Source: Candidatus Yonathbacteria bacterium
Lineage (GTDB): Bacteria > Patescibacteriota > Minisyncoccia > Phycocordibacterales > JACNGX01
Assembly: GCA_013334825.1 (NCBI GenBank)
Contig: JAAXWR010000002.1
Location: 34,025 to 98,024, forward strand
Reading direction: 5' to 3'
Length of the DNA stretch: 64,000 nucleotides
Shown in pieces: positions 4,543 through 31,303 of this stretch (within the stretch, counting starts at the first letter, position 1; every line of letters begins with the position of its first letter). The position numbers and the translations under genes are program-made. Under the pieces are notes generated by a model. The model did no database searches. It saw only the letters and a list, made by a program, of their open reading frames with translations, and had not been told where the DNA came from.

Positions 4543-5086
4543 AAGAATAGAAAACAATTATAAACAACAACGGGACGGGGCGAAAGCCCCGTCCCGTATT
4601 CGTATGTTCCCTGTAGCACGTGGGGTGCAGGGCAAGCGTACAAGTTCGTACTTCGTAGCCCGTCTCTAGTACAGCGTAGGGTGCAGGGCAGGGCGTAATT
4701 TTTAATTCAGCATTCATAATTTATACACAGTTTCCTTTTTCTCATGTTGTATCGTGTGTTCGTTCTACGAACTAAGAACTACGAACTACGAACTTGTGTT
4801 CGTCCATGTTCCACTACACCAACTTTTCTCATGCTTGTCATGCTTGCGTATCTTTTTTCGAGAATTATACTGATAGGGGGTTGCTACGGGTATTTTCTAG
4901 GACAAATCGTTTTTTCAGGGAGTCCGATGTTACTGCGCGCTTTGGTGCGTATGTTCAGGACACCCACCTGGCAATACGCTAGGGAATGCCCGGTTTATGC
5001 AACCCCTCAAAAGTCGTCCATCGTTCTTTCCAAGAATGCTGGACGTTTTTTGTTTGTTCTTTTCTTTCCTGTGATATACTTGTTGT

Positions 5087-5556: not shown

Positions 5557-6930
5557 ATGTCTTCTACACTTACTCTTACGTTTGCCGGTGGCGCTGGTTC
5601 AGTTACTGGCGCAAATTTTCATCTCACTGATTCTGTGTCGGGTATGCAATGTCTTGTTGATTGTGGACTTTTTCAAGGTGCATCGACGTCACTTCCGAAA
5701 AATGTTGAACCGTTTTCATACGTTCCTGCTGATATCGCATTTCTTTTTGTTACACATAGTCATATGGATCATATTGGACGCATCCCGCGTCTCGTAAGAG
5801 AAGGATTTCATGGTGTTATCCGTTCCACTCCCGCGACGAAGGATCTTGCGTATGAGATGCTGAAAGATAGTTTGTCTGTGCTTCGCTCTGAACAACGGAA
5901 GACTGGCATCGAACCTCCCTATGATGATGAGGACATTGAAGGGGCAATGCGTTTATGGGAAGGTGTTGAATATCATCAAGACATACCTATTTCAGGTGGT
6001 CTTGTTGCTCGATTATATGATTCGGGACATATTCTCGGATCTGCTATGGTATCGTTCACGCGTGAAGGAAGAACACTGGTTATTACTGGTGATTTAGGCA
6101 ACTCTCCTGCACCTATAGTCCGTGATACGGAAGTATTGCCAGAGGCGCACTATCTGGTGATGGAAAGTGTGTATGGCGACCGTAACCATGAAGACCGCGA
6201 TGGTCGTACAGAACTGCTTCGTTCTCTCATCCTTGAAACAGTAGAAAAAAAGGGAACGCTTGTTATCCCCGCATTTTCTTTGGAGCGTACGCAAGATGTG
6301 CTTTTTGAAATCAATAATTTTGTCGAGTCGCATGCGATTCCCAATGTCCCCGTATTTATGGACTCACCGCTTGCAATACGGGTCACGTCTATTTATCGCA
6401 AATATGAACGCTATTATAATGCCGATGTAAAAAGTGTCATAAAGAGTGGTGATGATATTTTCAAATTCCCTCATTTGTCATTTACTGAAACCCGTGAAGA
6501 GTCGGAGCGTATTAATAGTATTCCGGGGCCGAAAGTAGTTATTGCGGGTTCTGGAATGTCCAATGGGGGACGTGTGCGTCATCATGAACGTCTGTATCTT
6601 CCTGATGCAAAGAACACGATTCTTCTTGTGGGGTACCAAGTACCAGGGTCGTTAGGACGACAGCTTCTTGAAGGTGCAAAAAAGGTGCGGATATTTGATA
6701 CTGAAGTACCTGTTCGTGCGCGTATTGCTTCAGTAAATGGATATTCAGCGCACAAAGATATGGATGGACTTATCGCCTTTGCTGCACAAGGAGCAAAAAC
6801 ACTAGAAAAAGTATTTGTGACACTTGGTGAACCGCGCTCTTCGATGTTTCTCGCGCAACGACTTCGTGATTATGCTGATCTCAATACGCATGTTCCTGAG
6901 GATGGTGAAACAGTAACACTCGCACTATAG
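5557..6930 (+). CDS. Metallo-beta-lactamase/beta-CASP family RNA-processing nuclease (CPSF/RNase J-like)
   Basis: MBL motif 'VTHSHMDHIG', beta-CASP region and C-terminal His motifs. At 457 aa it has no KH domains. Confidence 0.8.
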   Translation: MSSTLTLTFAGGAGSVTGANFHLTDSVSGMQCLVDCGLFQGASTSLPKNVEPFSYVPADIAFLFVTHSHMDHIGRIPRLVREGFHGVIRSTPATKDLAYEMLKDSLSVLRSEQRKTGIEPPYDDEDIEGAMRLWEGVEYHQDIPISGGLVARLYDSGHILGSAMVSFTREGRTLVITGDLGNSPAPIVRDTEVLPEAHYLVMESVYGDRNHEDRDGRTELLRSLILETVEKKGTLVIPAFSLERTQDVLFEINNFVESHAIPNVPVFMDSPLAIRVTSIYRKYERYYNADVKSVIKSGDDIFKFPHLSFTETREESERINSIPGPKVVIAGSGMSNGGRVRHHERLYLPDAKNTILLVGYQVPGSLGRQLLEGAKKVRIFDTEVPVRARIASVNGYSAHKDMDGLIAFAAQGAKTLEKVFVTLGEPRSSMFLAQRLRDYADLNTHVPEDGETVTLAL

Positions 6931-7534: not shown

Positions 7535-8119
7535 ATGAACGATCTCGACCGTATTGCTGACGATATTCGTCTCTGTCACAAATGCCCATTGGCACAGACA
7601 CGCATATGTGCTGTCCCAGGAACAGGAAGTGGAAAAAGCGATATCGTCTTTATTGGTGAAGCTCCTGGTGCGCGTGAAGACCGTGAAGGATTGCCATTTA
7701 TTGGTGCTGCGGGGAAATTTCTTGATGAAATGCTTGCGGATATTGCGCTCTCTCGTGCCGATGTGTTTGTTACGAACGTCGTGAAATGTCGTCCACCGGA
7801 CAACCGTGACCCGCTTCCTGAAGAAGTGCGTATCTGCACAGAAGCATATCTCTGGAAACAGTTGGAAGTGCTCAAGCCAAAACTTCTCGTGCCACTTGGT
7901 CGGCATGCCATGCACCGTTTTCTCCCAGTAACAGAAAAAATAAGCGAGATACACGGCACGCCTGTTGGTATTACAAACCCTCTGTCAGGAGAGAAATATG
8001 TTGTTCTTCCGCTCTATCACCCCGCGGCAGCGCTCTATAACGGGAGTATGCGGGAAGTACTCAAGCGTGATTTTCGCGAAATACCGAAGATGATTGAAAA
8101 GATGAAATATGAAAAATGA
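7535..8119 (+). CDS. udg: Uracil-DNA glycosylase family 4 (Fe-S type)
   Basis: Motifs 'CHKCPL…', 'GEAPGAREDREGLPFIGAAGKFLDEML' and 'VVKCRPPDNRDP' match family-4 UDG. Confidence 0.85.
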   Translation: MNDLDRIADDIRLCHKCPLAQTRICAVPGTGSGKSDIVFIGEAPGAREDREGLPFIGAAGKFLDEMLADIALSRADVFVTNVVKCRPPDNRDPLPEEVRICTEAYLWKQLEVLKPKLLVPLGRHAMHRFLPVTEKISEIHGTPVGITNPLSGEKYVVLPLYHPAAALYNGSMREVLKRDFREIPKMIEKMKYEK

Positions 8120-8317
8120 AATATGTATAAAAAAGCGCACGAACTGCCGCCCGCACTTTTCCTGAGTAAAAAGGGTAATAATTTCCTAGTCATCCGTAGG
8201 ATCAATCAGAATATATTATAATTATAAAAAATCACATGTATTATTTGTGTATTATTAGATTTTTACTTTTTTGGTTTGAATATGAACTAATTGAGTGGCG
8301 CCATCTGACGCCTTTTT

Positions 8318-8348
8318 GTAAAAAGAAAAACACGCCATCTGGCGTGTT
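8318..8348. terminator. Bidirectional rho-independent terminator between convergent udg (+) and rplT (-)
   Basis: Hairpin AAAAACACGCCA-TCT-GGCGTGTTTTT flanked by an A-run and a T-run. Confidence 0.7.
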
Positions 8349-8384
8349 TTTCTTTTGTCTGAAATTTAAAATAGTGCGTGGCTT

Positions 8385-8732
8385 TTATTTCTTTACAGCC
8401 GTTACAATACGAGCAAATGTTTCTGGGTTTTCATGCGCCATTTCTGAAAGCATTTTGCGATTGAGTGTGCTTCCGTATGCTTTGAGTGCACCCATAAACG
8501 CACTGTAGGACATGCCATGTTCACGAACCGCGGCATTGAGACGTACTTGCCAGAGACGGCGGAAGTCATTTTTCTTGTCGCGACGGTGGGCAAATGCATA
8601 ATTGCCTGCGTGAGCAATCGCTTCACGTGCTTGACGCTCTTTCGTGGAGCGACCAAAGCGATAACCCTTCGTCATTTTCAAGACGTTACGGCGACGCTTC
8701 ATTGAAATGGTACCTCGTTTAACTCGGGACAT
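8385..8732 (-). CDS. rplT: Ribosomal protein L20
   Basis: 'MSRVKRGT…RRNVLK…GYRFGRSTKERQAREAIAHAGNYAFAHRRDKK' is canonical L20. Confidence 0.9.
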   Translation of the reverse strand: MSRVKRGTISMKRRRNVLKMTKGYRFGRSTKERQAREAIAHAGNYAFAHRRDKKNDFRRLWQVRLNAAVREHGMSYSAFMGALKAYGSTLNRKMLSEMAHENPETFARIVTAVKK

Positions 8733-8793
8733 GATAGTAAATTAAATAGTAAACAATAATATAAATAAACGATTTTGTGTTACCTCGTACAGG

Positions 8794-8982
8794 TTAGTCG
8801 AGATTTGACAAGTAACGGCGTTTGGCACGGGTTGTTAAAGCAAGTGTGCGACCTCCTTTCTTTTCGAGTTGAGAGGAGCGTGACGCTTTGGCATTAAAGT
8901 GATTGATGCCCGAACCACGGACGATCACTTTGCCTGTTTTGGTCGTTTTGACCCGTTTTTTGAATGATTTGTTGGTTTTCAT
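8794..8982 (-). CDS. rpmI: Ribosomal protein L35
   Basis: Internal start 'MKTNKSFKKRVKTTKTGKVIVRGSGINHF…' matches L35. The longer upstream ORF extension is non-coding. Confidence 0.8.
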   Translation of the reverse strand: MKTNKSFKKRVKTTKTGKVIVRGSGINHFNAKASRSSQLEKKGGRTLALTTRAKRRYLSNLD

Positions 8983-9013
8983 GATGATATGTAACAATTG
9001 TCCGACTACTGTA

Positions 9014-9559
9014 TCATACTTGTTTACCTTTTTCCAGTACCAGAGAAAGTCCTTTTGGGCTTTTCTTTGCAGGGTCGGCAATGCGGTAGGGTACAGAAAT
9101 AAGTACAAGAATACGGTCGAGGCGTTCTTTGAGGAATTCTTCTTTCATATATTTTGCGCGTCCAGCGAGGAAGAGATCCAATTTAACACGATGTCCTTCG
9201 GATAACCATGCAGAAATACGTTTTGCTTTGAGCGCGAGGTCATGGTCGCCTGTACCGATTTTGACTTGAACCACTTTTGTTTCGGTTGTATGTGCTTTGC
9301 TTTTGACGTCGCGCTGTTTTTTGCTCTGTTCGTATTGGTATTTTCCGTAGTCAGTGATGCGTGCAACAGGGGGAACAGCATTCGGCGATACTTCAATAAG
9401 GTCAAATCCGAGTTCATGGGCTTTGCGTACAGCCTCTAGTGTATCCATGACACCGAAGTTTTCTCCTTCGGGACCAATAACGCGTACCTCAGGAACACGA
9501 ATTTCTTTATTGAGGCGGGTACGTCCCGCGGGAATTTTTTGTGGAGGGTAATCACTCAT
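9014..9559 (-). CDS. infC: Translation initiation factor IF-3
   Basis: '…EIRVPEVRVIGPEGENFGVMDTLEAVRKAHELGFDLIEVSPNAVPPVARITDYGKYQYE…' is IF-3. infC-rpmI-rplT sit in the conserved operon order. Confidence 0.9.
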   Translation of the reverse strand: MSDYPPQKIPAGRTRLNKEIRVPEVRVIGPEGENFGVMDTLEAVRKAHELGFDLIEVSPNAVPPVARITDYGKYQYEQSKKQRDVKSKAHTTETKVVQVKIGTGDHDLALKAKRISAWLSEGHRVKLDLFLAGRAKYMKEEFLKERLDRILVLISVPYRIADPAKKSPKGLSLVLEKGKQV

Positions 9560-9710
9560 CTATTGAAAAAAGCCCGCTTTTCGCAAGCTCTCGTCAATCA
9601 TATAAGAAAGAGAGTAAAGAGTCAATAGCCCCTGCGCCAAGGAGGATGCAGGGCGGGCTTGTTTGGAGTAAGGAAACAAAACAATATGCCGCGCTTCGCG
9701 CGGCATCCGT

Positions 9711-9905
9711 CTATTGTAAATTATATTCCTCATCTCCTTTTAGTGCTTTTTCTCGTAAAGCTCTTTCAGCGTCCTCAGCCGCTTTTCGTTTTCTATACAA
9801 CTCTTCATCTTCTGCTGAGCCGACGAATGCGATATGTGCGTCAATTTCTTCTGCATCGTTCAGCGCATCATGTATAGCTTCATCGTGAAAAGGTTGTGTT
9901 TCCAT
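9711..9905 (-). CDS. Small acidic hypothetical protein (about 64 aa)
   Basis: ORF with a plausible internal start 'METQPFHDEAIHD…'. No homology recognised. Confidence 0.35.
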   Translation of the reverse strand: METQPFHDEAIHDALNDAEEIDAHIAFVGSAEDEELYRKRKAAEDAERALREKALKGDEEYNLQ

Positions 9906-10051
9906 GATATGGGGTGTTGATTGATAATACTGTAGATGATACTTCTGTATATAGTATATATCACGAAACATATCTACGCGCAATATGTTGAATGGTGATA
10001 CTATATACATATACTATGACAGTACGAGACACGCAGATATATAAGCGGAGT

Positions 10052-10939
10052 ATGCCATATATCCTGATAATCATTGTCGCGGGAGGTGCTTTTTTATGGG
10101 GGAGAAATACCGCACCTCCTCTTACTCTGCATGGAGACATTGCTTCACCAATTGATACAGATATATATGTTCCAACAGAAAACATAGCTTCTGTCGCTCC
10201 ACTCGATGATGTATTCATGACAGATAGTCTCGCAGATGAAACACCTGTTCTTGTGGAACATTCTTCTGTTGTATATCCTCACGTGCAGACAGATGAGCGT
10301 GTGTCCCATGAGACATATCGTGTTCTCTCTGTTGTTGATGGTGATACACTTACAGTGGATATGGACGGTGTGTCGCAGACACTTCGTTTGATAGGGCTTG
10401 ATACACCCGAGACGGTTGATCCACGCAAGCCGGTACAATGTTTTGGCAAAGAAGCCTCTCAGAAAGCAAAAAATGTTTTGACAGGAAAGCGTGTGCGTAT
10501 TGAGCGTGACGTAACGCAAGGTGTATATGACAAATATAATCGACTTCTTGCCTATGTGTTTTTGGAGGATGGAACATTTTTCAATGAAATGATGATTCGT
10601 GAAGGATATGGACATGAATATACGTATGCGACACCATATGCGTATCAAACACTGTTTCAGGAAGCAGAACATGATGCACGCGCAAACGGTAGAGGGCTGT
10701 GGGCAGTGGACGCATGCGCGGGAGACACAACGTCTCCACCCACACCAAGTGTAACAACCAGCGTAGTGGTATCTTCTACAACATCAGGATATACATGTGC
10801 TACGAATACCTATAATTGTACAGATTTTAGTACACAAATGGAGGCGCAACACGTATTTGAGGAATGTGGGGGAACAAACAATGATATACATCGTCTTGAT
10901 TCGGATAAAGACGGTCGTGTTTGTGAAAGTCTACCGTGA
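10052..10939 (+). CDS. Membrane-anchored thermonuclease (SNase-like) with a C-terminal Excalibur Ca-binding domain
   Basis: N-terminal TM anchor 'MPYILIIIVAGGAFLW'. SNase core 'VVDGDTLTV…IRLIGLDTPETVDP…CFGKEASQ…RLLAYVF…' is present. The C-terminal 'CTDFSTQMEAQHVFEECGG…DSDKDGRVCE' is an Excalibur-type motif. Confidence 0.8.
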   Translation: MPYILIIIVAGGAFLWGRNTAPPLTLHGDIASPIDTDIYVPTENIASVAPLDDVFMTDSLADETPVLVEHSSVVYPHVQTDERVSHETYRVLSVVDGDTLTVDMDGVSQTLRLIGLDTPETVDPRKPVQCFGKEASQKAKNVLTGKRVRIERDVTQGVYDKYNRLLAYVFLEDGTFFNEMMIREGYGHEYTYATPYAYQTLFQEAEHDARANGRGLWAVDACAGDTTSPPTPSVTTSVVVSSTTSGYTCATNTYNCTDFSTQMEAQHVFEECGGTNNDIHRLDSDKDGRVCESLP

Positions 10940-11046
10940 GAGGTAGATTTTCTAGAAACTACGCTATTGCACGTATTGTCTGTATGGTGTACAACAAGGG
11001 TAGTGTTTTTTGCAAGAACATATAATCCATAAAACAAAGGAAAAAG

Positions 11047-12402
11047 ATGATACAAGTAACAATGTTGGATTCCGGACCTACGTCTGCCGTTGAAGCGATT
11101 TCATTCGGCGCACTTGTGTGCTATCAGGGAGAGATTCCTGAATACGGCAAGAAAATTGATATCCAAAAACGTCTCTTTGAAACAGGGCACCATACGACAT
11201 TTCAACATACATACTGCTCATTCGTTATTGACGGTATTCCTGTTGGCAGTGTGACGTTCGGTCTCCATCTTCACCCGTTCTATAACACGGGACAACGGTC
11301 GGGGAGGTTCTGCTCGGGGATGTTCGCGAACCCGGATCTGGATGCGATACAAGAGTCAATCGCGACATTCTGGTCACTTGAAAAGGATGTTATGGCGGAA
11401 GTCATGGACTATGTCGCATCCGGCTTTGCTGTGTATGGAACATGGTTCGATCGTGCGAAAGAACTGACCGCGACGTATATACAGGAAGACCGCCCTTATG
11501 CTTCGGAGAAGTATGTGACGGCGAACGCGGAGAAGATAGCGCAGGAACAATTGCGCGTGTTTATTCCCGTGATATTTCCCACAGCTCTTGAGTACACTAT
11601 CAATCTATCCACACTTGCCGCGCTCTACGCAAGCGCATGGTCTCCTGTGTTACAGGATGTGACGAAACAGATGGCCGAGAGGGTGCTTGAGAAATGGCCT
11701 GAACTCTCATTCATGTTTGAAAGAGGAAGGAGATCTCTCAGTCATTTTTTCGTCTCCATGGATGATGATATTTATGACAAGAATGCCATTCTCTTTGACC
11801 CAGTCCTCAGCGTGCTTCATGTGGATGATGTTTCTGAAAGTGACATGTTCATTATTTCTGAAACGGACATGCACCCAATCAACCTCCTCCCGTTTTATCC
11901 CACATTCATGGAGTTTGATGTTGCAGAGTTAAAGACAGACGTTGAAATGTCTGTCGCGACACTCGGGCAGAAACAGCGACACAGGACTGTGCGAAGAAGT
12001 TTCCCGAGATTTACCGGGAACTTCTATCTCCCACCCGTTCCTCGCGGTTTGGGACTTGAAAGAGATGCCACACTTCTCATGGAGAAATGGATGTCACTTC
12101 GGATGAAGATACATTCGGACCTTTTCATGAATCTTGCACCGTATGGCGCAATGGTTAGATATCAGGAAATTGCTTCATTTAATTCAGCAATTCATGAAGG
12201 GGCGAAACGTCTGTGCTTATGCGCACAAGAGGAGATTTATCATCTCGCTCGTCAGGAGGAAGCACAGATTTCAAGTACTCCTTTGAGGAAATTTTTTGCT
12301 CCTCCGTGCATGGCGACAGGGAAGTGTGGTGAGGGGGTGCGGTACTGTGGCAGAGACCTCAAGAAACTGCCGGAGGATCCTTTTCCGAAACGGCGGGTAT
12401 GA
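11047..12402 (+). CDS. ThyX (flavin-dependent thymidylate synthase)-like fold protein with an altered dUMP-binding motif, fused to a roughly 235-aa Cys-containing C-terminal region
   Basis: The N-terminal 215 aa align with ThyX: 'HGHETPFEHxxFTFxVxGISRAxxxQxxRHRxxSYxxxSxRY' versus 'TGHHTTFQHTYCSFVIDGIPVGSVTFGLHLHPFYNTGQRSGRF'. RHR is replaced by HLH, and the S-G-R is kept. The C-terminal half has no recognisable homology, with several Cys near the end. Confidence 0.55.
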   Translation: MIQVTMLDSGPTSAVEAISFGALVCYQGEIPEYGKKIDIQKRLFETGHHTTFQHTYCSFVIDGIPVGSVTFGLHLHPFYNTGQRSGRFCSGMFANPDLDAIQESIATFWSLEKDVMAEVMDYVASGFAVYGTWFDRAKELTATYIQEDRPYASEKYVTANAEKIAQEQLRVFIPVIFPTALEYTINLSTLAALYASAWSPVLQDVTKQMAERVLEKWPELSFMFERGRRSLSHFFVSMDDDIYDKNAILFDPVLSVLHVDDVSESDMFIISETDMHPINLLPFYPTFMEFDVAELKTDVEMSVATLGQKQRHRTVRRSFPRFTGNFYLPPVPRGLGLERDATLLMEKWMSLRMKIHSDLFMNLAPYGAMVRYQEIASFNSAIHEGAKRLCLCAQEEIYHLARQEEAQISSTPLRKFFAPPCMATGKCGEGVRYCGRDLKKLPEDPFPKRRV

Positions 12403-12486
12403 TATCCTTTTTGTTAAGTGTTCATTCGTGTGATAACAGGTTCTTCGAGGGCCTGTTTTTTGTAAGAATATAGATACAAACAAAAA

Positions 12487-12504
12487 CGGCCCCGATGGGC
12501 CGTG
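12487..12504. terminator. Bidirectional terminator hairpin between convergent genes
   Basis: ACGGCCC-GATG-GGGCCGT stem-loop with flanking A and T runs. Confidence 0.55.
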
Positions 12505-12510
12505 TGATTT

Positions 12511-13002
12511 TCACCTGTTTTTATGAAGGAACGCAAGGATGCGTTCTTTTTCAGGGTGTTGTTCCGCAATCCTGTAAAAGATGTACGGATTTTTGTAAAG
12601 GTCGAAGTACTCCTCAAGGAGTGCCACGGAGATTGTTCGACCTTTTTGTACGATACGAAACTCCACTTCTTTGAAATGCTCCTCTAACAGTTGTTCTGCG
12701 AATGGGATATCCGAAATAAAAAATAATGTTGATAATCCCATGGGGTATTTGCCCCATTCTCTGAGGCGTTCCTTAAGAGACATCAGACATATGTCGTAGT
12801 ATCTTGCGACATAGACAAATGCCAATGTCACTGTGCCGAGTGTCGGGATCCTTTCTTTGAGAAGTTCGATGATCCGCGCATCGCGCGTTCTCTCGTCTTC
12901 ATCAGGGAGAGGTTCCATGGCACCAAATAGCGTCTCCCATTCTTTTGCGTAGACGGCACCTATGCCTTCTTTTGAAAGGATACGACCATTGCTTGTTTCC
13001 AT
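12511..13002 (-). CDS. Hypothetical protein (163 aa)
   Basis: Intact ORF, convergent with the ThyX-like gene. No motif recognised. Confidence 0.45.
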   Translation of the reverse strand: METSNGRILSKEGIGAVYAKEWETLFGAMEPLPDEDERTRDARIIELLKERIPTLGTVTLAFVYVARYYDICLMSLKERLREWGKYPMGLSTLFFISDIPFAEQLLEEHFKEVEFRIVQKGRTISVALLEEYFDLYKNPYIFYRIAEQHPEKERILAFLHKNR

Positions 13003-13183
13003 TTTTTCTTAGGATTTTGAGGTTGTGGAAAGGACTTTGTTAAGTGGACTATAGCATACTTTTCTGGTTTTGGGAAGGGGTATATCGCAGGAATGCCCGT
13101 TACTGTTTTTTTGTATGAAGCCCTATATTTCAACATGACTTTTTATACACAGGTGTATTTAAAATATTTTTTGATTTGATATT

Positions 13184-13579
13184 ATGAAGTACATGAAGGA
13201 CTTTCTTATGTGGATACAACAAAAAATAACATTGGATAGGAGTATTCATCGTCCCCCTTTTGTTTCTGAAGGTGATATATGGTGGGCATCTATCGGAGAA
13301 AATATTGGTTCAGAAATTTGAGGAAAGAGTTCTCTTTTTTCAAGACCAGTGATTATTTATCGTAAACTTGTTCATGGTTTTTATTTTGTCATACCGACGA
13401 GCACAAAGGAAAAAGAAGGAAGTTGGTATGTCCCATATCAACATAAAGGTGTAAAAAATGTTGCGTGTTTACACCAAGCTCGCGCTGTTGATCATCGCTG
13501 TATTTAAAATAAATTAGGCACATTAGATGATAGGGACTTCGAATTGGTTCGTCAAGGTTTTCATGATTTGTATAAATAA
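13184..13579 (+). pseudogene. MazF/PemK-family toxin pseudogene, single frame interrupted by in-frame TGA and TAA
   Basis: One frame reads 'MKYMKDFLMWIQQKITLDRSIHRPPFVSEGDIWWASIGENIGSEI*GKSSLFSRPVIIYRKLVHGFYFVIPTST…VKNVACLHQARAVDHRCI*NKLGTLDDRDFELVRQGFHDLYK*'. This matches the MazF/PemK pattern (GDIVxVDF…GSEQ/GxRPxLVxS…I/CPIT…) with two internal stops. There is no upstream antitoxin ORF. Confidence 0.5.
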
Positions 13580-13721
13580 CAATATTCCCCGCCCTTATGG
13601 GCGGGGTCGCGGGACAATCCCGAATGTATGTTAAGTGTATATGAGGTATAAAAATTGTGTAACTATTTAAAGGAGTCCATAAATGCGCACAACATTTATA
13701 GGGTATCGACCCCGCAGTTAT

Positions 13722-13821
13722 CCAGCTCCACTTTCATAATAAACACACATGCTATGATAGATTTTTTATCCGAGACGTGAGTATTGTTTATAGATAAAGT
13801 CTTTTATGAAAGTGGGGCTGG
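13722..13821. repeat. 100-nt palindromic element with 16-nt terminal inverted repeats CCAGCTCCACTTTCAT / ATGAAAGTGGGGCTGG (copy 1 of 2)
   Basis: The same termini and the same 100-nt length recur at 58244-58343 with an unrelated interior. The termini resemble tmRNA/tRNA acceptor ends (…CCAGCUCCAC / GGGGCUGG…). Confidence 0.6.
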
Positions 13822-13834
13822 ATGCTCCTGGGCG

Positions 13835-13872
13835 CCGAGCACCACTTTTATAACGATAAAAGTGGTGCTCGG
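13835..13872. repeat. Hairpin repeat CCGAGCACCACTTTT-N8-AAAAGTGGTGCTCGG (family member 1 of 3)
   Basis: Near-identical stems recur at 59017-59052 and 60411-60447. All are adjacent to tRNA or tmRNA sequences. Confidence 0.6.
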
Positions 13873-13873
13873 T

Positions 13874-14186
13874 TCGATACCCCCACGCGAGCCGAGCAGT
13901 CGGCTCGCTCATCTCCACACGCAAAACAACAAACCACCCTTTCGGGTGGGTTGTTTTGGTGTGGAGATGGGGGGTATTGGTCAGGAGTCCGTGAAAATCA
14001 TAGTCGCTTTGCTCCTTGATTTTCTACGGCTCACGACCCTGGCTCGGCGACAAGCACTCGCACGCAAGCGTGCTCGTCTTGTGTACCGCCTCCGCCTTTC
14101 GATACCCCCAGCGAAAAGCTCGCTTTTCGCTTCACATCTCCAATCCATAAAAAAGAAACACCTCTTTAAAGAGGCGCTTCTTTTTT
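13874..14186. repeat. Array of tmRNA-terminus-like modules, each followed by an A-run/hairpin/T-run terminator. Modules: 13874-13921 + terminator 13922-13956; 3'-end copy 13957-13974; 14095-14136 + terminator 14150-14186
   Basis: The motif 'TTCGATACCCCC-A-[short hairpin]-CATCTCCA' occurs twice (its reverse complement is GGAGATG-[hairpin]-GGGGGTATCGAA). A second copy 'CCCCCCATCTCCACACCA' of the authentic tmRNA 3' end 'CCCCCCATCTCCACCA' lies 230 nt downstream of the real one. Confidence 0.5.
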
Positions 14187-14187
14187 A

Positions 14188-14605
14188 TGGTGGAGATGGG
14201 GGGTATCGAACCCCCGTCCAAACGTGGTTTGCGAGTGGGTCTACGCGATGTAGGTTGTTTTTTGGATTTGAACCGATTGTTTTTGAAACAAACAAAACGA
14301 CAATCAGTCGAGTTTCGTCGATTCTCGAGCGTCTGATGAAACGGTCAGATGCTCCAGTCCGATGAGTATGACACCCTCTCAGACATATCGGACGTCAGAA
14401 GAGAGGACGCCGCTTAGGCGAATCGAGACACGAGGTCTTGATTAGGCGAAAGCGGGAGCGAAGGACGGTATTCCAAAGTAGGAAGAGGCAATACCTTTTG
14501 CTTTAAGAGACAAGTTCGCACTTATCGTTTGTGACGGTTTTACGAGTCATCACAGCTCGATCGCGCGCACGGGCAGAGACACGCCTGTCGAAGCCGATCA
14601 TCCCC
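14188..14605 (-). ncRNA. ssrA: tmRNA (ssrA), standard one-piece, 418 nt
   Basis: Minus-strand 5' end 'GGGGAUGAUCGGCUUCGACAGGCG' matches the conserved tmRNA 5' acceptor strand and GGnUUCGAC element. The 3' end 'GGACGGGGGUUCGAUACCCCCCAUCUCCACCA' has a T-arm, a 7-nt acceptor strand complementary to the 5' end (one G·U pair) and an encoded CCA, followed by a terminator. The gene lies immediately downstream of and co-oriented with smpB. A candidate tag ORF after '…CUCUUAAA' is GCA AAA GGU … GCC UAA, giving AKGIASSYFGIPSFAPAFA*. The tag is low confidence. Confidence 0.7.
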
Positions 14606-14670
14606 GCACAACACTTCGCTCAGCGGAGAGGAGTGTTGCGCGGGAAGGACCGCAATGGGGCGGCATGCAC

Positions 14671-15114
14671 TTATTCATCTTTCAAAGATCGACGCATTTC
14701 ACGTTCTGCTTCACGCTTTTTGATAGTTTCGCGTTTGTCGAACTGTTTTTTACCACGTCCGATAGCGACTTCCACCTTGAGAAACTTATGTTTATTATAC
14801 ACTGAAAGTGGGATAACTGTCAATCCATTGGTAGATTCAGCGTCGGAGAGTTGTGCGATTTCTTTTTTGGACAAAAGAAGCCGTCGTGTCCGCGCGGGGT
14901 CATAGGACAGAGGAGTATTGACACTTTGATAGGGCGGTATGGTCATACCGACAATATATGCTTCACCTCCACGCACGAGAACGTGGGCACCTTCAAGTGA
15001 CCCCCTCCCGCCACGAAGAGACTTTACTTCAAAACCGTGCAAATCCAAGCCCGCCTCAAATTTCTCAAGGATGTCATAATCAAAATGTGCTTTTTTGTTC
15101 CGTATCAGAGACAT
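14671..15114 (-). CDS. smpB: SsrA-binding protein SmpB
   Basis: '…KKAHFDYDILEKFEAGLDLHGFEVKSLRGGRGSLEGAHV…' is canonical SmpB. Confidence 0.9.
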   Translation of the reverse strand: MSLIRNKKAHFDYDILEKFEAGLDLHGFEVKSLRGGRGSLEGAHVLVRGGEAYIVGMTIPPYQSVNTPLSYDPARTRRLLLSKKEIAQLSDAESTNGLTVIPLSVYNKHKFLKVEVAIGRGKKQFDKRETIKKREAEREMRRSLKDE

Positions 15115-15238
15115 GCCCGTATCATATCAGAAAATTGTATCTTTGTGCGATTTTCTTTAAAGGCTTTCTTTCTGTTCATATATATGATAAAAAGGAATAA
15201 GTGCTTTTTCTTTGCTAATCTTTTAGAACATTATTTTA

Positions 15239-30322: not shown

Positions 30323-31303
30323 ATGGCATTTACCGACGAATATCAATTTGAATCAAAAGCGGGCAAGGGCGGCGATGGCGTCGTTCGTTGGCGTCATGAA
30401 AAGTCTCGAGAGTTCGCAGGCCCTGCCGGTGGTGATGGTGGTCGGGGTGGTGATGTATATATACGCGCGGTGCGTGATATCGCGCTTCTTTCCAAGTATC
30501 GCAATAAAACACGATTTGATGCGGAGGACGGACATCCAGGAGAAAAGAAGAGTATGAAAGGAAAAAATGGCGAAGATTTGTATATTGAATTGCCAGTCGG
30601 CTCTGTGGTTACTAATCTTGATACGCACGAAATCTTTGATCTCACGCATGAAGGCGATACGTTCATGGTTCTCGCGGGTGGGCAAGGAGGATACGGTAAT
30701 GAGAACTTCAAAAGTTCACGCAATATCACACCCAAACAAGCGACCACGGGAAAGCCAGGGCAAGAAGGACGTTTCGCGGTTGAGCTCCGTCTCATTGCAG
30801 ATATTGGTCTTATTGGACTACCGAGCGCGGGCAAGTCTTCACTCTTGAATGCGCTCACGCACGCAGATGCGAAAGTTGGTGCCTACGATTTTACCACACT
30901 CGAGCCAAACCTTGGTGTGATGTATGGTATTGTGCTTGCGGATATTCCCGGACTCATTGAAGGGGCATCAGAGGGAAAAGGACTCGGACATAAATTTCTT
31001 CGTCATGTACGCCGGACGCATATTTTGGCGCACTGTGTCTCGTGTGAACATGATGATATCACAAGCGCTTACCATACTATCCGCGAAGAATTAAAACGAT
31101 ATGATGAAACGATGTGTGAGAAACCAGAGATACTCATTCTTACCAAGACAGATATGTGCAGTCCTGAAGAACTTTCGGAAAAAATAAAAGAAGCAAAAAA
31201 GCTTTCTCAGCATGTGGAAACAGTAACACTGTATGATGATGAATCAGTGAAATATATTGGTGGTGTATTTGCACGACTTGAGAATGAGAAACTAGGAATA
31301 TAA
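30323..31303 (+). CDS. obg: GTPase Obg/CgtA
   Basis: Obg fold N-terminus 'FTDEYQFESKAGKGGDGVVRWRHEKSREFAGPAGGDGGRGGDVYI…' and G-domain 'GLPSAGKSSLL'. Confidence 0.9.
   Translation: MAFTDEYQFESKAGKGGDGVVRWRHEKSREFAGPAGGDGGRGGDVYIRAVRDIALLSKYRNKTRFDAEDGHPGEKKSMKGKNGEDLYIELPVGSVVTNLDTHEIFDLTHEGDTFMVLAGGQGGYGNENFKSSRNITPKQATTGKPGQEGRFAVELRLIADIGLIGLPSAGKSSLLNALTHADAKVGAYDFTTLEPNLGVMYGIVLADIPGLIEGASEGKGLGHKFLRHVRRTHILAHCVSCEHDDITSAYHTIREELKRYDETMCEKPEILILTKTDMCSPEELSEKIKEAKKLSQHVETVTLYDDESVKYIGGVFARLENEKLGI

Follow-up and report, generated by a model that had tools for sequence, protein, structure and literature searches.

[quoted passage not shown] The type III systems (ToxIN, CptIN, TenpIN) resemble the module proposed below in pairing a sequence-specific endoribonuclease with a small structured RNA that neutralises it, and in that the RNA outlasts the toxin in decayed loci; ToxN, moreover, shares the Kid/MazF-like fold. 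However, type III antitoxins are tandem repeats located upstream on the same strand and cut into units by the toxin, whereas the small RNA (sRNA) gene of the present family occurs once, downstream of the toxin and convergent with it, and has a promoter of its own, and the toxin belongs to PF02452, not to the ToxN/AbiQ families of type III. Type I systems with a 3' overlap (txpA/RatA and bsrG/SR4 of B. subtilis, par of E. faecalis) also have a convergent sRNA over the toxin 3' end, and a strong sRNA promoter is common to them and to this family. Most known type I toxins are small membrane peptides, and SymE/SymR and RalR/RalA show that protein enzymes can be under sRNA control as well. The toxin of the present family is a soluble MazF-fold protein of 128 aa instead of the small hydrophobic peptide of type I, and 21 nt of the sRNA are near-invariant, whereas the sequences of type I antitoxin RNAs are not conserved across phyla. 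Conserved RNA structure is likewise tied to pemK genes in the pemK RNA motif, which reportedly lies 5' of pemK, on the same strand, in Firmicutes.

[quoted passage not shown] A TA pair consisting of the RNA antitoxin cjrA and cjpT has been reported from this plasmid, CjrA reportedly being an antisense sRNA of type I, and the RNA antitoxin is said to stabilise the plasmid. The gene CJJ81176_pVir0047 of strain 81-176 is a homologue of the toxin subfamily described below (hhalign probability 99%, E 8e-18; 32% identity over 120 columns, N-terminal extension included), and no protein antitoxin is annotated for it. On the opposite strand lies the 77-nt sRNA CJpv3 (31119 to 31043), which was confirmed by Northern blot and whose transcription start site has a step height of 16164 vs 28 for the toxin mRNA (Dugar et al. 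2013, PMC3656092). CJpv3 ends 5 nt past the stop codon of pVir0047 (31036-31038); as in the arrangement that we describe here, the sRNA is convergent and the GC terminator hairpin at its end abuts the toxin stop. Its level far exceeds that of the pVir toxin mRNA. Probably pVir0047/CJpv3 is the cjpT/cjrA pair of Shen et al. 2016 (pmid 27291507); the pVir record of IA3902 was absent among the megablast matches, which was counted in favour of this identification. There are also differences: CJpv3 has three hairpins and 77 nt vs ~50 nt for the subfamily sRNA, and the 26-nt leader of the pVir toxin mRNA carries a Shine-Dalgarno-like AAGGA ~14 nt upstream of the ATG.

The locus lies in a stretch of 64,000 nucleotides of Candidatus Yonathbacteria DNA, hereafter the window, and comprises the following features, with the neighbouring tmRNA gene given for context.

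12532..13700, no strand assigned: strain-variable cassette containing a 163-aa open reading frame (ORF), the toxin pseudogene and the sRNA gene, from synteny with a close relative (L157)
12511-13002, minus strand: the 163-aa ORF, no Pfam match
13177..13185, plus strand: predicted extended -10 element TGATATTAT of the toxin gene, from a consensus scan
13193..13579, plus strand: PemK/MazF toxin pseudogene of an N-terminally extended subfamily, from PF02452, a family HMM and gapless alignment
13319..13321, plus strand: in-frame TGA, codon 43 (Asn, Gly, Ser or His in homologues)
13499-13501, plus strand: codon 103, TGT Cys, replacing a near-invariant Arg
13505..13507, plus strand: in-frame TAA, codon 105 (Leu, Ser, Trp or Tyr in homologues)
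13577-13579, plus strand: terminal stop TAA of the pseudogene
13574..13627, minus strand: candidate RNA antitoxin, sRNA gene 5'-ACAUUCGGGAUUGUCCCGCGACCCCGCCCAUAAGGGCGGGGAAUAUUGUUAUUU, from covariance model R1
13587..13606, minus strand: intrinsic terminator hairpin of the sRNA, CCCCGCCC-AUAA-GGGCGGGG, then AAUAUUGUUA, from a terminator scan
13610..13622, minus strand: hairpin 1 of the sRNA, CGGGA-UUG-UCCCG, from alignments A3 and A4
13634..13662, minus strand: predicted sRNA promoter, from the consensus over 115 distinct loci
13634-13639, minus strand: -10 box TACACT of that promoter, intact
13656-13661 or 13657-13662, minus strand: its -35 box, TACACA or TTACAC respectively, vs TTGACa
14188..14605, minus strand: tmRNA gene ssrA, outside the module (ARAGORN; Rfam RF00023, 131.9 bits)

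From ATG 13193 to TAA 13579 the plus strand holds a single frame of 128 codons and a stop, interrupted by TGA at codon 43, where the intact genes compared have AAT (Asn) or GGT (Gly), and by TAA at codon 105, where they have CTC (Leu) or TCC (Ser). With the stops masked, the frame gives a single match to Pfam PemK_toxin (PF02452) over residues 29-127, across both stops (E 7.4e-9; 36.2 bits, cut-off 23.1); taken singly, neither fragment reaches a PF02452 score, and the 45-aa fragment does not appear among recorded gene calls. An HMM of close homologues scores 235 bits against the window translation (E 3.9e-73). Intact 128-aa PemK/MazF homologues align to the frame without gaps, the best at 73% identity (E 4e-61), and comparison with the intact genes of three loci (L001, L002 and L004) gives zero indels. 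The frame thus has two nonsense changes and no frameshift; the TGA and the TAA therefore make this a pseudogene of the PemK/MazF family, a conclusion about which we have almost no doubt. The preliminary description had likewise read the frame as a MazF/PemK pseudogene with these two stops, whose segments should align jointly to PF02452, and all of this is borne out. Its start at 13184 has to be moved, because the homologous start is ATG 13193 and 13184 falls inside the predicted -10 element.

Homologues of the window toxin are intact proteins of ~128 aa, and every intact one contains PF02452. Subfamily proteins span 128-130 aa and have an N-terminal helix with an F..W..K motif. The AlphaFold2 model of one intact homologue (P0001; pLDDT 72) has the MazF fold, with the MazF proteins of E. 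coli, S. aureus and M. tuberculosis as the best PDB matches (TM 0.6-0.77, probability 1.00; 0.68-0.77 for E. coli MazF). Arg29 and Thr52 of E. coli MazF align with the conserved SRP and PTST motifs of the subfamily, a catalytic role assigned by alignment; the Arg and Pro of SRP are invariant, whereas the Thr of PTST does not vary among 18 sequences and shows at least 90% conservation among 120. Both putative catalytic residues are kept in the window copy. We therefore regard the subfamily toxin as a putative MazF/PemK-fold endoribonuclease, on the strength of alignment and modelled structure. It is set apart from canonical MazF by NCBIfam equivalog scores of 16-27 bits vs a cut-off of 120, and the PADLOC defence-system library gave no match. 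A profile search with the subfamily alignment recovered 1,420 clusters (50% identity, E up to 1e-10) from Patescibacteria, Alphaproteobacteria, Campylobacterota and other groups. Other decayed members of the family have stops at codons different from those of the window copy.

The preliminary description also noted that there is no cognate antitoxin. This stands for proteins: no plus-strand ORF of at least 30 aa is present in 13003-13192, the 190 nt upstream of the gene. It overlooked, however, a convergent sRNA partner at 13574-13627 on the minus strand. The sRNA is ~50 nt long, with a predicted start at A 13627 and a U-rich tail that overlaps the toxin stop codon. Covariance model R1 has its only match in the window here (13567-13628, minus strand; 76.5 bits, E 3.7e-15), and the predicted fold has an MFE of -25.3 kcal/mol (z -3.5). 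The near-invariant 5' end, ACAUUCGGGAUUnUCCCGCG, contains the 5' ACAUU, which together with hairpin 1 and the following CGR forms a 21-nt core that is ~99% conserved among loci whose toxins are 43-73% identical and whose coding DNA is 63-70% identical. Beside it, the terminator stem varies freely via compensatory changes, which occur at all eight of its pairs across the family; in hairpin 1, compensatory changes from GC to AU (2 sequences) and from GC to CG (3) are seen in loci chosen by protein. Overall, 98.5% of the cells at sRNA pairs are paired and 10 of the 13 pairs have compensatory changes, a count reached by none of 500 shuffles, both values coming from an alignment that was fitted to the model. 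The same two hairpins fold on the plus strand too (-26.3 kcal/mol), and the minus strand is favoured by 23 G.U vs 7 A.C cells in the helices. Rfam 15 gives gathering-level matches in the window for the tmRNA and tRNAs only and, at E up to 10, chance-level matches only over 13574-13628, which distinguishes the element from the pemK RNA motif.

Upstream of the sRNA lies a predicted sigma-70 promoter, whose -10 pattern TAnnnT is present at 99% of 115 distinct loci, with a spacer of 16-17 nt; in 109 of these loci the end of this box lies 6 nt upstream of the A in ACAUUC. The -35 box is conserved at T97 T99 G93 A73 C80 % across the same 115 loci. In the window, it differs from TTGACa at the two best-conserved positions and is thus damaged; the promoter fails the consensus promoter scan, whereas the sRNA body is still perfect. 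The 19-nt core of the sRNA has no exact match in IMG/VR. The idea of a phage-borne sRNA acting as an anti-toxin decoy was dropped, as IMG/VR lacks the core and the sole viral protein match is 28% identical and without an sRNA.

Toxin and sRNA are tightly coupled. Each of 80 metagenome loci chosen by protein similarity alone has an R1 match (44-81 bits), and in 79 of them the sRNA lies on the opposite strand at the toxin 3' end, with its terminator on the stop codon; no intact toxin without the sRNA was found among the 80. Counting all instances, 119 of ~127 are convergent with the tail on the stop codon of a toxin gene or its remnant, and the distance from stop codon to sRNA start is 45-48 nt in 69 of 95 loci. 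The converse loss is frequent: an intact sRNA sits beside a decayed or missing toxin in ~14 of 49 loci found by RNA motif, and where the toxin is gone the sRNA is retained with its promoter. We consider it very probable that the sRNA is a real partner inherited with the toxin. The neighbours of intact subfamily genes vary, and the module moves across very different contexts and phyla. Six-frame clustering of the 450-nt flanks yielded no conserved ORF upstream of the toxin in 75 loci (largest cluster 3) or downstream in 119 (largest cluster 5), and we rejected a hidden protein antitoxin on this ground. The missing protein antitoxin, previously taken as a sign of decay, is hence normal for the whole subfamily. 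A literature search for MazF/PemK toxins with RNA antitoxins found nothing on this subfamily. One locus (L108), which may be non-functional, departs from this layout: its sRNA gene is placed upstream of an intact toxin gene and transcribed away from it, and the two neither overlap nor show complementarity (z 0.05).

The toxin gene has a predicted promoter of its own (TTTAAA-16-TATTAT with TG, 13158-13185, by consensus scan), the -10 element of which ends 7 nt before ATG 13193, and there is no Shine-Dalgarno sequence; the toxin mRNA is therefore probably leaderless. The same reading probably applies to the subfamily, judging from upstream sequences: TAnnnT ends 6-9 nt ahead of the start codon in 44 of 75 family loci and 4-13 nt ahead of it in 49 of 75 (vs 22% of shuffles in the 4-13 nt range), the TG extension is present in 29 of 75, and a Shine-Dalgarno-like tetramer precedes the start in one of 75.

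We propose that the locus is what remains of a compact, ~500-bp module of two genes, toxin and sRNA, that has decayed here. The intact module would encode a MazF/PemK-fold endoribonuclease without a protein antitoxin, whose mRNA is probably leaderless. Its second gene would be a strongly transcribed one for an sRNA of ~50 nt, read towards the toxin in nearly every locus, that would serve as the antitoxin. As in type III systems, the sRNA would bind the toxin protein itself, as an RNA ligand resistant to cleavage, via its 5' ACAUU and first hairpin; base-pairing to the toxin mRNA at its 3' end may contribute. In the Yonathbacteria copy, two nonsense mutations and an Arg-to-Cys change have inactivated the toxin; as the -35 box of the sRNA is mutated too, we read the module as dead or dying cargo in the variable region beside ssrA. 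That the sRNA would neutralise the subfamily toxin appears likely to us, and the asymmetric loss, with the sRNA outliving the toxin, suggests a TA pair, of which it is expected. Direct action mainly on the toxin protein is a possibility that we favour with reserve, and the account as a whole, a decayed toxin with a protein-binding sRNA antitoxin, is our best explanation and a tentative one. Action on the protein is suggested by the conservation of the 21-nt core far beyond that of the toxins while the terminator stem drifts, by the probably leaderless mRNA, which would offer no 5' UTR target, and by the lack of sRNA-mRNA complementarity beyond the overlap (mean z -0.3), together with the absence of any overlap in L108. 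Trans base-pairing with the toxin mRNA outside the overlap was set aside as not significant; the recurrent best pairing site is a GC-rich Pro-Pro codon stretch, which pairs with the terminator stem. A further idea, that the 5' ACAUU mimics the 3' product of a UACAU-type MazF site, is unsupported, ACAUU and UACAU not being avoided in 84 toxin genes (z -0.6), although this is a weak test.

The near-universal tail-to-tail overlap argues against a purely protein-directed sRNA and for some role in cis. In the same module, the antitoxin sRNA could be a cis-antisense, type I-like RNA that pairs with the 3' end of a toxin mRNA reading through into the sRNA gene, and would trigger RNase III cleavage and mRNA decay, possibly with a non-stop mRNA cleared by trans-translation; convergent transcription could also interfere with toxin expression. 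Read-through is likely, given that the plus-strand hairpins have no U tract, in which case the whole sRNA would be complementary to the toxin 3' UTR (except in L108, which lacks the overlap), and the convergent position over the stop codon in 119 of ~127 instances, at narrow spacing, fits such pairing. So does the one experimentally studied relative, from Campylobacter, where CjrA is reported to be a type I antisense sRNA and CJpv3 has the same layout. Yet antisense pairing needs no sequence conservation, and 21 nt are near-invariant across phyla beside a drifting stem; the loops of 3-4 nt are poor for loop-loop initiation; the target, being the 3' end of a probably leaderless mRNA, would not allow translation initiation to be blocked; one locus has no overlap at all; and known type I toxins are, as noted, of a different kind. 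We consider this reading rather unlikely. Neither mechanism would apply if the conserved element were a 3' structure or terminator of the toxin mRNA, some other regulator or a DNA site for cassette movement, with some other control on the toxin, such as its own N-terminal extension or a host factor. The folding of both hairpins on the plus strand and the mobility of the module between contexts and phyla are compatible with this, but the opposite strand keeps a well-placed sigma-70 promoter across 115 loci, the G.U pairs favour the minus strand, sRNA and promoter persist where the toxin is gone, and the matching sRNA is abundantly expressed in C. jejuni, all of which makes it improbable.

The remaining alternatives concern the toxin gene. 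An orphan type II MazF that lost its antitoxin gene through mobile-element decay, and has no partner left, would account for a broken gene in a variable region with no protein antitoxin ORF upstream; this is highly improbable, as intact subfamily members never have a conserved neighbouring ORF and the window does contain the partner sRNA gene, at 76.5 bits. Nor do we find it credible that the window gene is functional, its stops being sequencing errors or subject to read-through, even though the frame has no frameshifts, the TGA is one base from GGA (Gly, a residue seen at codon 43 in homologues) and the TAA is one base from TTA (Leu), TCA (Ser) or TAT/TAC (Tyr), all seen in homologues. An independently assembled Logan contig (L152, run SRR11449211), recorded in two samples, is 100% identical to window 8511-13746; since it is identical over the pseudogene, a one-off error of assembly is an improbable source of the stops. 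The window's long open frames (at least 250 codons) close with TAG (12), TAA (11) or TGA (6), and other decayed copies have their stops elsewhere, so we rejected recoding or read-through, in agreement with the preliminary description; this Candidatus Yonathbacteria organism is unlikely to depart from the standard genetic code. In addition, a near-invariant Arg is lost and the -35 box of the partner sRNA is mutated.

The window copy itself is an ordinary dead gene. It does, though, bring a widespread misannotation to light: hundreds of genes annotated as "type II toxin-antitoxin system PemK/MazF family toxin", apparent orphans, belong to a module with an unannotated RNA gene. The sRNA is a candidate for a new Rfam family. 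Should it prove to be the antitoxin, control of MazF toxins would extend beyond proteins, TA types I, II and III would be less sharply separated, and surveys of solitary toxins would need correcting, especially for the reduced genomes of Patescibacteria. Should it bind the toxin directly, as we propose, it would be a single-copy, type III-like RNA antitoxin with its own promoter, linking type II MazF to ToxN; as the RNA is near-identical across hosts, one sRNA could then be a universal antidote for the core clade. It is conceivable, if somewhat doubtful, that these loci represent a large, unrecognised class of MazF-fold toxins neutralised by a dedicated ~50-nt sRNA that binds the nuclease via the ACAUU-hairpin core. 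The pVir case in C. jejuni suggests a role in the maintenance of plasmids and islands. With filters off, R1 finds no sRNA match in the CJIE4, H. suis and Nitratiruptor relatives; the model is blind to the sRNAs of Campylobacter, Helicobacter and Nitratiruptor, and homology of the RNAs across the wider family is therefore suggested by layout, the one property that CJpv3 and the window sRNA have in common when sequence and fold are compared.

As to its setting, the locus had been described as mobile-element cargo beside ssrA. The close relative L157 (SmpB 97% identical) aligns with window 13701-15200 and 12478-12531 and carries a different, 3.3-kb segment between these flanks, and the GC content of the cassette is 34-38% vs ~45% in the flanks; the locus thus does lie in a strain-variable segment beside ssrA. 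Integration at the tmRNA gene is not borne out: no integrase was found among the Pfam matches of the neighbouring genes, and bounding ssrA 3'-end repeats, which with an integrase would characterise a tmRNA-targeting integrative island, are likewise missing. No tandem repeats, the form that type III antitoxins take, occur in 12400-14300. The tmRNA 3'-end fragments between ssrA and the pseudogene recur at 96% identity in L157, where the cassette is absent; hence they do not mark the ends of the window cassette, and we rejected them as its boundaries. A 17-nt repeat (13961-13977) and inverted fragments also lie in DNA common to L157.

The MazF/PemK pseudogene with in-frame TGA and TAA codons that the preliminary description placed in the window is real, although by itself ordinary; the value of the finding lies in the toxin-small RNA (sRNA) module behind it, whose RNA matches no family in Rfam. 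The parts of the window module are:

13177-13185, + strand: predicted toxin promoter, TGATATTAT, in place, as is the start codon
13184-13579, + strand: PemK/MazF-like translation in a single frame, with TGA after ...GSEI and TAA after ...HRCI
13574-13627, - strand: body of the sRNA, at 76.5 bits among the better-scoring members

With the stops masked, one Pfam PemK_toxin match spans both in one stretch (E 7.4e-9; 36.2 bits, cut-off 23.1), giving the joint profile alignment of the segments that had been proposed as a check; there is no Pfam score for the fragments taken singly. The frame from ATG 13193 has exactly 128 codons plus a stop and aligns without indels to intact genes. Homologues read AAT or GGT at codon 43, here TGA, and CTC or TCC at codon 105, here TAA; at codon 103 Cys replaces a near-invariant Arg. 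The window gene is a recent pseudogene: it carries only point changes, and its frame is nowhere shifted. Recoding of the stops is unlikely, as TAG, TAA and TGA alike close long ORFs in the window. A second, independent assembly, from Logan and recorded in two samples, is 100% identical to window 8511-13746.

In a DNA alignment of five loci, conservation over about 48 nt downstream of the toxin far exceeds that of the coding sequence. Searching one genome per species for the exact 19-nt core CGCGGGAnAATCCCGAATG returned 64 stretches; about 49 carry the full element (in Patescibacteria, Methylocystaceae, Hyphomicrobium and other groups), the other 15 or so being bare core matches inside high-GC coding DNA. 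On the strand opposite to the toxin gene, the element has all the parts of a small gene: TTGAC, a spacer of 16-17 nt, TAnnnT, 6 nt, ACAUUCGGGAUUnUCCCGCGR, a GC-rich hairpin and then AAUAUUUAUUU. Across 115 distinct loci, conservation of the -35 box is T97 T99 G93 A73 C80 (%), the -10 box TAnnnT is found in 99%, and the distance from its end to the A of ACAUUC is exactly 6 nt in 109.

RNAalifold predicts two hairpins in the RNA. A covariance model built from 50 sequences (R1) was tested on 80 metagenome loci picked by protein similarity only; all 80 matched, at 44-81 bits, 79 of them on the non-toxin strand at the toxin 3' end, and a 28%-identical viral homologue gave no match. The 80-locus alignment has 98.5% of cells paired and compensatory changes at 10 of 13 pairs, a level reached by none of 500 shuffles and lost in slid controls, which collapse; this alignment was fitted to R1 and is biased towards the structure, a bias from which the promoter evidence is free. 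All eight pairs of the terminator stem show compensatory changes. Hairpin 1 is almost invariant, yet two kinds of double change occur in it, GC to AU and GC to CG. Non-Watson-Crick cells comprise 23 that are G.U on the sRNA strand versus 7 that are A.C (G.U on the toxin strand). As a module, the MazF-type toxin and its small RNA are widespread, and the pairing is unannotated.

The window sRNA differs from that at the locus of the closest intact homologue (L001) at three positions, all in loops, the coding DNA being 70% identical. Its -10 box, TACACT, is intact; its -35 box (TACACA or TTACAC) is off consensus at the two positions conserved best, and a consensus promoter scan does not pick the promoter up. 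With the toxin dead and the -35 box off consensus, decay is visible in both halves of the module, the toxin being further gone. At L001 (813-7057) the module sits within a defence-like cluster of an HTH protein, a SNF2/ResIII helicase, DUF4391, the toxin-sRNA module and an N6/N4 DNA methyltransferase.

A search of 5.8 billion proteins found 553 relatives of the toxin, the best 73% identical (E 4e-61) and nearly all about 128 aa long and intact, mostly in Patescibacteria (Kaiser-, Lipton- and Paceibacteria) and also in Methylocystis. Searched with a profile, 1.84 billion cluster representatives yielded 1,420 clusters at E up to 1e-10; in most, the match takes in the full length, N-terminal extension included. 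Kinship to characterised MazF/EndoA is distant (E about 3e-4 to PDB sequences; NCBIfam MazF scores of 16-27 bits, cut-off 120). The AlphaFold2 model of an intact homologue (P0001) has a predicted MazF fold (TM 0.68-0.77 to E. coli MazF), and the SRP and PTST motifs, both conserved, align with the catalytic Arg and Thr. Some database proteins (P0108 and the 144-aa CJIE4 "toxin MazF" at L154 1480-1914) have a C-terminal extension such as ...VKNVPRSFKRGRG, which is the translated sRNA terminator hairpin; these genes lack a stop codon, or the gene call was carried past it.

No small antitoxin ORF lies beside intact close homologues in four contexts, whose upstream genes are unrelated (DUF4391, peptidase S49 and a histidine kinase among them). 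Six-frame clustering found no ORF common to more than 3 loci in the 450 nt upstream of 75 loci, nor to more than 5 in the 450 nt downstream of 119. Absence of a protein antitoxin is a trait of the whole subfamily; the earlier statement that the toxin has no cognate antitoxin stands to that extent, but in the window a conserved sRNA gene partners it. In 44 of 75 loci a toxin-gene TAnnnT has its end 6-9 nt ahead of the start codon, and one of the 75 has a Shine-Dalgarno-like motif upstream of the start. Toxin genes of the subfamily have an extended -10 box at this distance (family loci; window 13177-13195). Because this box is so close to the start and Shine-Dalgarno motifs are almost absent, the sequences suggest leaderless toxin mRNAs. 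In contrast to the subfamily, the toxin mRNA of a C. jejuni relative has a 26-nt leader.

In 119 of about 127 instances the sRNA adjoins a toxin gene, or what remains of one, at its 3' end. The sRNA starts 45-48 nt past the toxin stop codon in 69 of 95 loci, and therefore its U-rich tail covers the stop codon. Loss was counted among the 49 loci found by RNA motif alone: the toxin is frameshifted, truncated or internally deleted in seven (L009, L022, L026, L046, L053, L057 and one L064 copy), and none is present in the fetched 8 kb in seven others (L007, L016, L020, L036, L050, L054 and L058). The sRNA is intact in all 14, and no intact toxin without the sRNA was found among the 80 protein-chosen loci. 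A toxin-antitoxin pair would be expected to decay in this way, losing the toxin while keeping the sRNA and never the other way round. L064, a Candidatus Uhrbacteria contig, has two module copies (4876-4937 and 6359-6477) 1.5 kb apart with nearly identical sRNAs and flanks, one toxin being intact and the other internally deleted or frameshifted.

At 31-37% identity, distant homologues are found on plasmids of Helicobacter suis and Nitratiruptor and in CJIE4 prophages of Campylobacter. No antitoxin is annotated for any of them; in each, a GC hairpin abuts the toxin stop codon and a second hairpin lies beyond. A further homologue is pVir0047 of the C. jejuni 81-176 plasmid pVir (30634-31038; hhalign probability 99%). 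On the opposite strand, from 31119 to 31043, is the 77-nt RNA CJpv3, "Detected on Northern blot" (Dugar et al. 2013, PMC3656092, Table S12). Its transcription start has a step height of 16164, versus 28 for the toxin's own, and the largest for pVir among the rows listed (PMC3656092, Table S5). Two papers citing Shen et al. 2016 describe CjrA as the antisense RNA antitoxin of a type I system on pVir. We infer that cjpT is pVir0047 and cjrA is CJpv3, because pVir has no other gene annotated as the toxin of a toxin-antitoxin system, the layouts match, and the region's megablast matches include no IA3902 pVir record. This also draws on the IA3902 pVir, which reportedly bears the other toxin-antitoxin pair. 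The pairing thus likely has one experimental precedent. The CJpv3 region is copied at 91-93% identity on small cryptic Campylobacter plasmids of 3.8-5.2 kb (L161, H24-H27). On the one plasmid examined, pCJ419 of C. jejuni (L161 788-1295), the copy directly follows a 142-aa ORF without resemblance to PemK (hhalign probability 0.1, no Pfam match), and the sRNA may there have another protein as its partner.

Taken together, the coupling, the one-sided loss, the strength of the promoter and the Campylobacter case point to the sRNA as the probable antitoxin. It may bind the toxin nuclease directly, a reading we favour tentatively because the 21-nt 5' core is near-invariant at toxin identities of 43-73%, with the adjacent stem drifting, and cis-antisense pairing needs no sequence conservation. 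The apparently leaderless toxin mRNA argues the same way, as does L108, the sole locus of about 127 with the sRNA upstream of an intact toxin and pointing away (393-936):

393-454, - strand: L108 sRNA gene, with a good promoter
541-936: L108 intact toxin gene

L108 has no downstream sRNA, no overlap and no complementarity between sRNA and toxin, and offers a natural test of action in trans. That the sRNA acts instead as an antisense RNA is somewhat less likely: the almost universal tail-to-tail overlap, probable read-through of the sRNA gene by the toxin mRNA, and the type I label given to the C. jejuni relative in those citing papers would fit it, but the invariant core would be unneeded, L108 lacks any overlap, and we found no extra sRNA-mRNA complementarity, which likewise favours direct binding. 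A role other than antitoxin takes up what probability direct binding and antisense action leave.

The ssrA-adjacent region is a cargo-exchange site, because relatives carry other segments in place of window 12532-13700. The window SmpB is 100% identical to that of a Candidatus Yonathbacteria MAG. L157, a close relative without the cassette (SmpB 97% identical), aligns with window 13701-15200 and 12478-12531 and has between them a 3.3-kb segment with a RadC/DNA-methylase fusion; GC drops over the window cassette. The L157 cargo (7614-10891) consists of a 286-aa ORF and this fusion. A more distant Yonathbacteria genome (L159 6449-9926) has at the site a GIY-YIG protein, an HTH protein and a reverse transcriptase (RVT_1), the last perhaps a defence gene of retron-like or DRT-like type.

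Downstream of ssrA, its 3' end recurs at 13961-13977, 13871-13884 (fragment 13871-13920) and 14098-14109 (fragment 14098-14142), as copies of the tmRNA end. The first is a 17/17 direct copy, GTGGAGATGGGGGGTAT; the two longer fragments are inverted T-loop/acceptor copies, each split by about 25 nt. The fragments form long hairpins with the real ssrA 3' end. They are ancestral, since L157 has them at 96% identity, and were rejected as cassette bounds, sitting in the part shared with L157; they are possibly old integration scars or a structured ssrA 3' flank. Of the proposed mobile-element cargo beside a tmRNA hotspot, the variable cargo site by ssrA is retained, but the tmRNA repeats do not bound it and no integrase lies near the window cassette.

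A ThyX (Thy1) gene at window 10946-12477 is not at the same place in L157, where window 10900-10945 and 12478-12531 are contiguous (L157 10892-10991), a clean gene-sized insertion or deletion of thymidylate synthase. Two independent Logan contigs, L152 (ending at 13746) and L150 (starting at 13718), overlap by 29 nt (window 13718-13746) at an inverted repeat (13720-13744 / 13799-13823) close to the cassette boundary at 13700; their junction may be an assembly-graph branch from strain variation.
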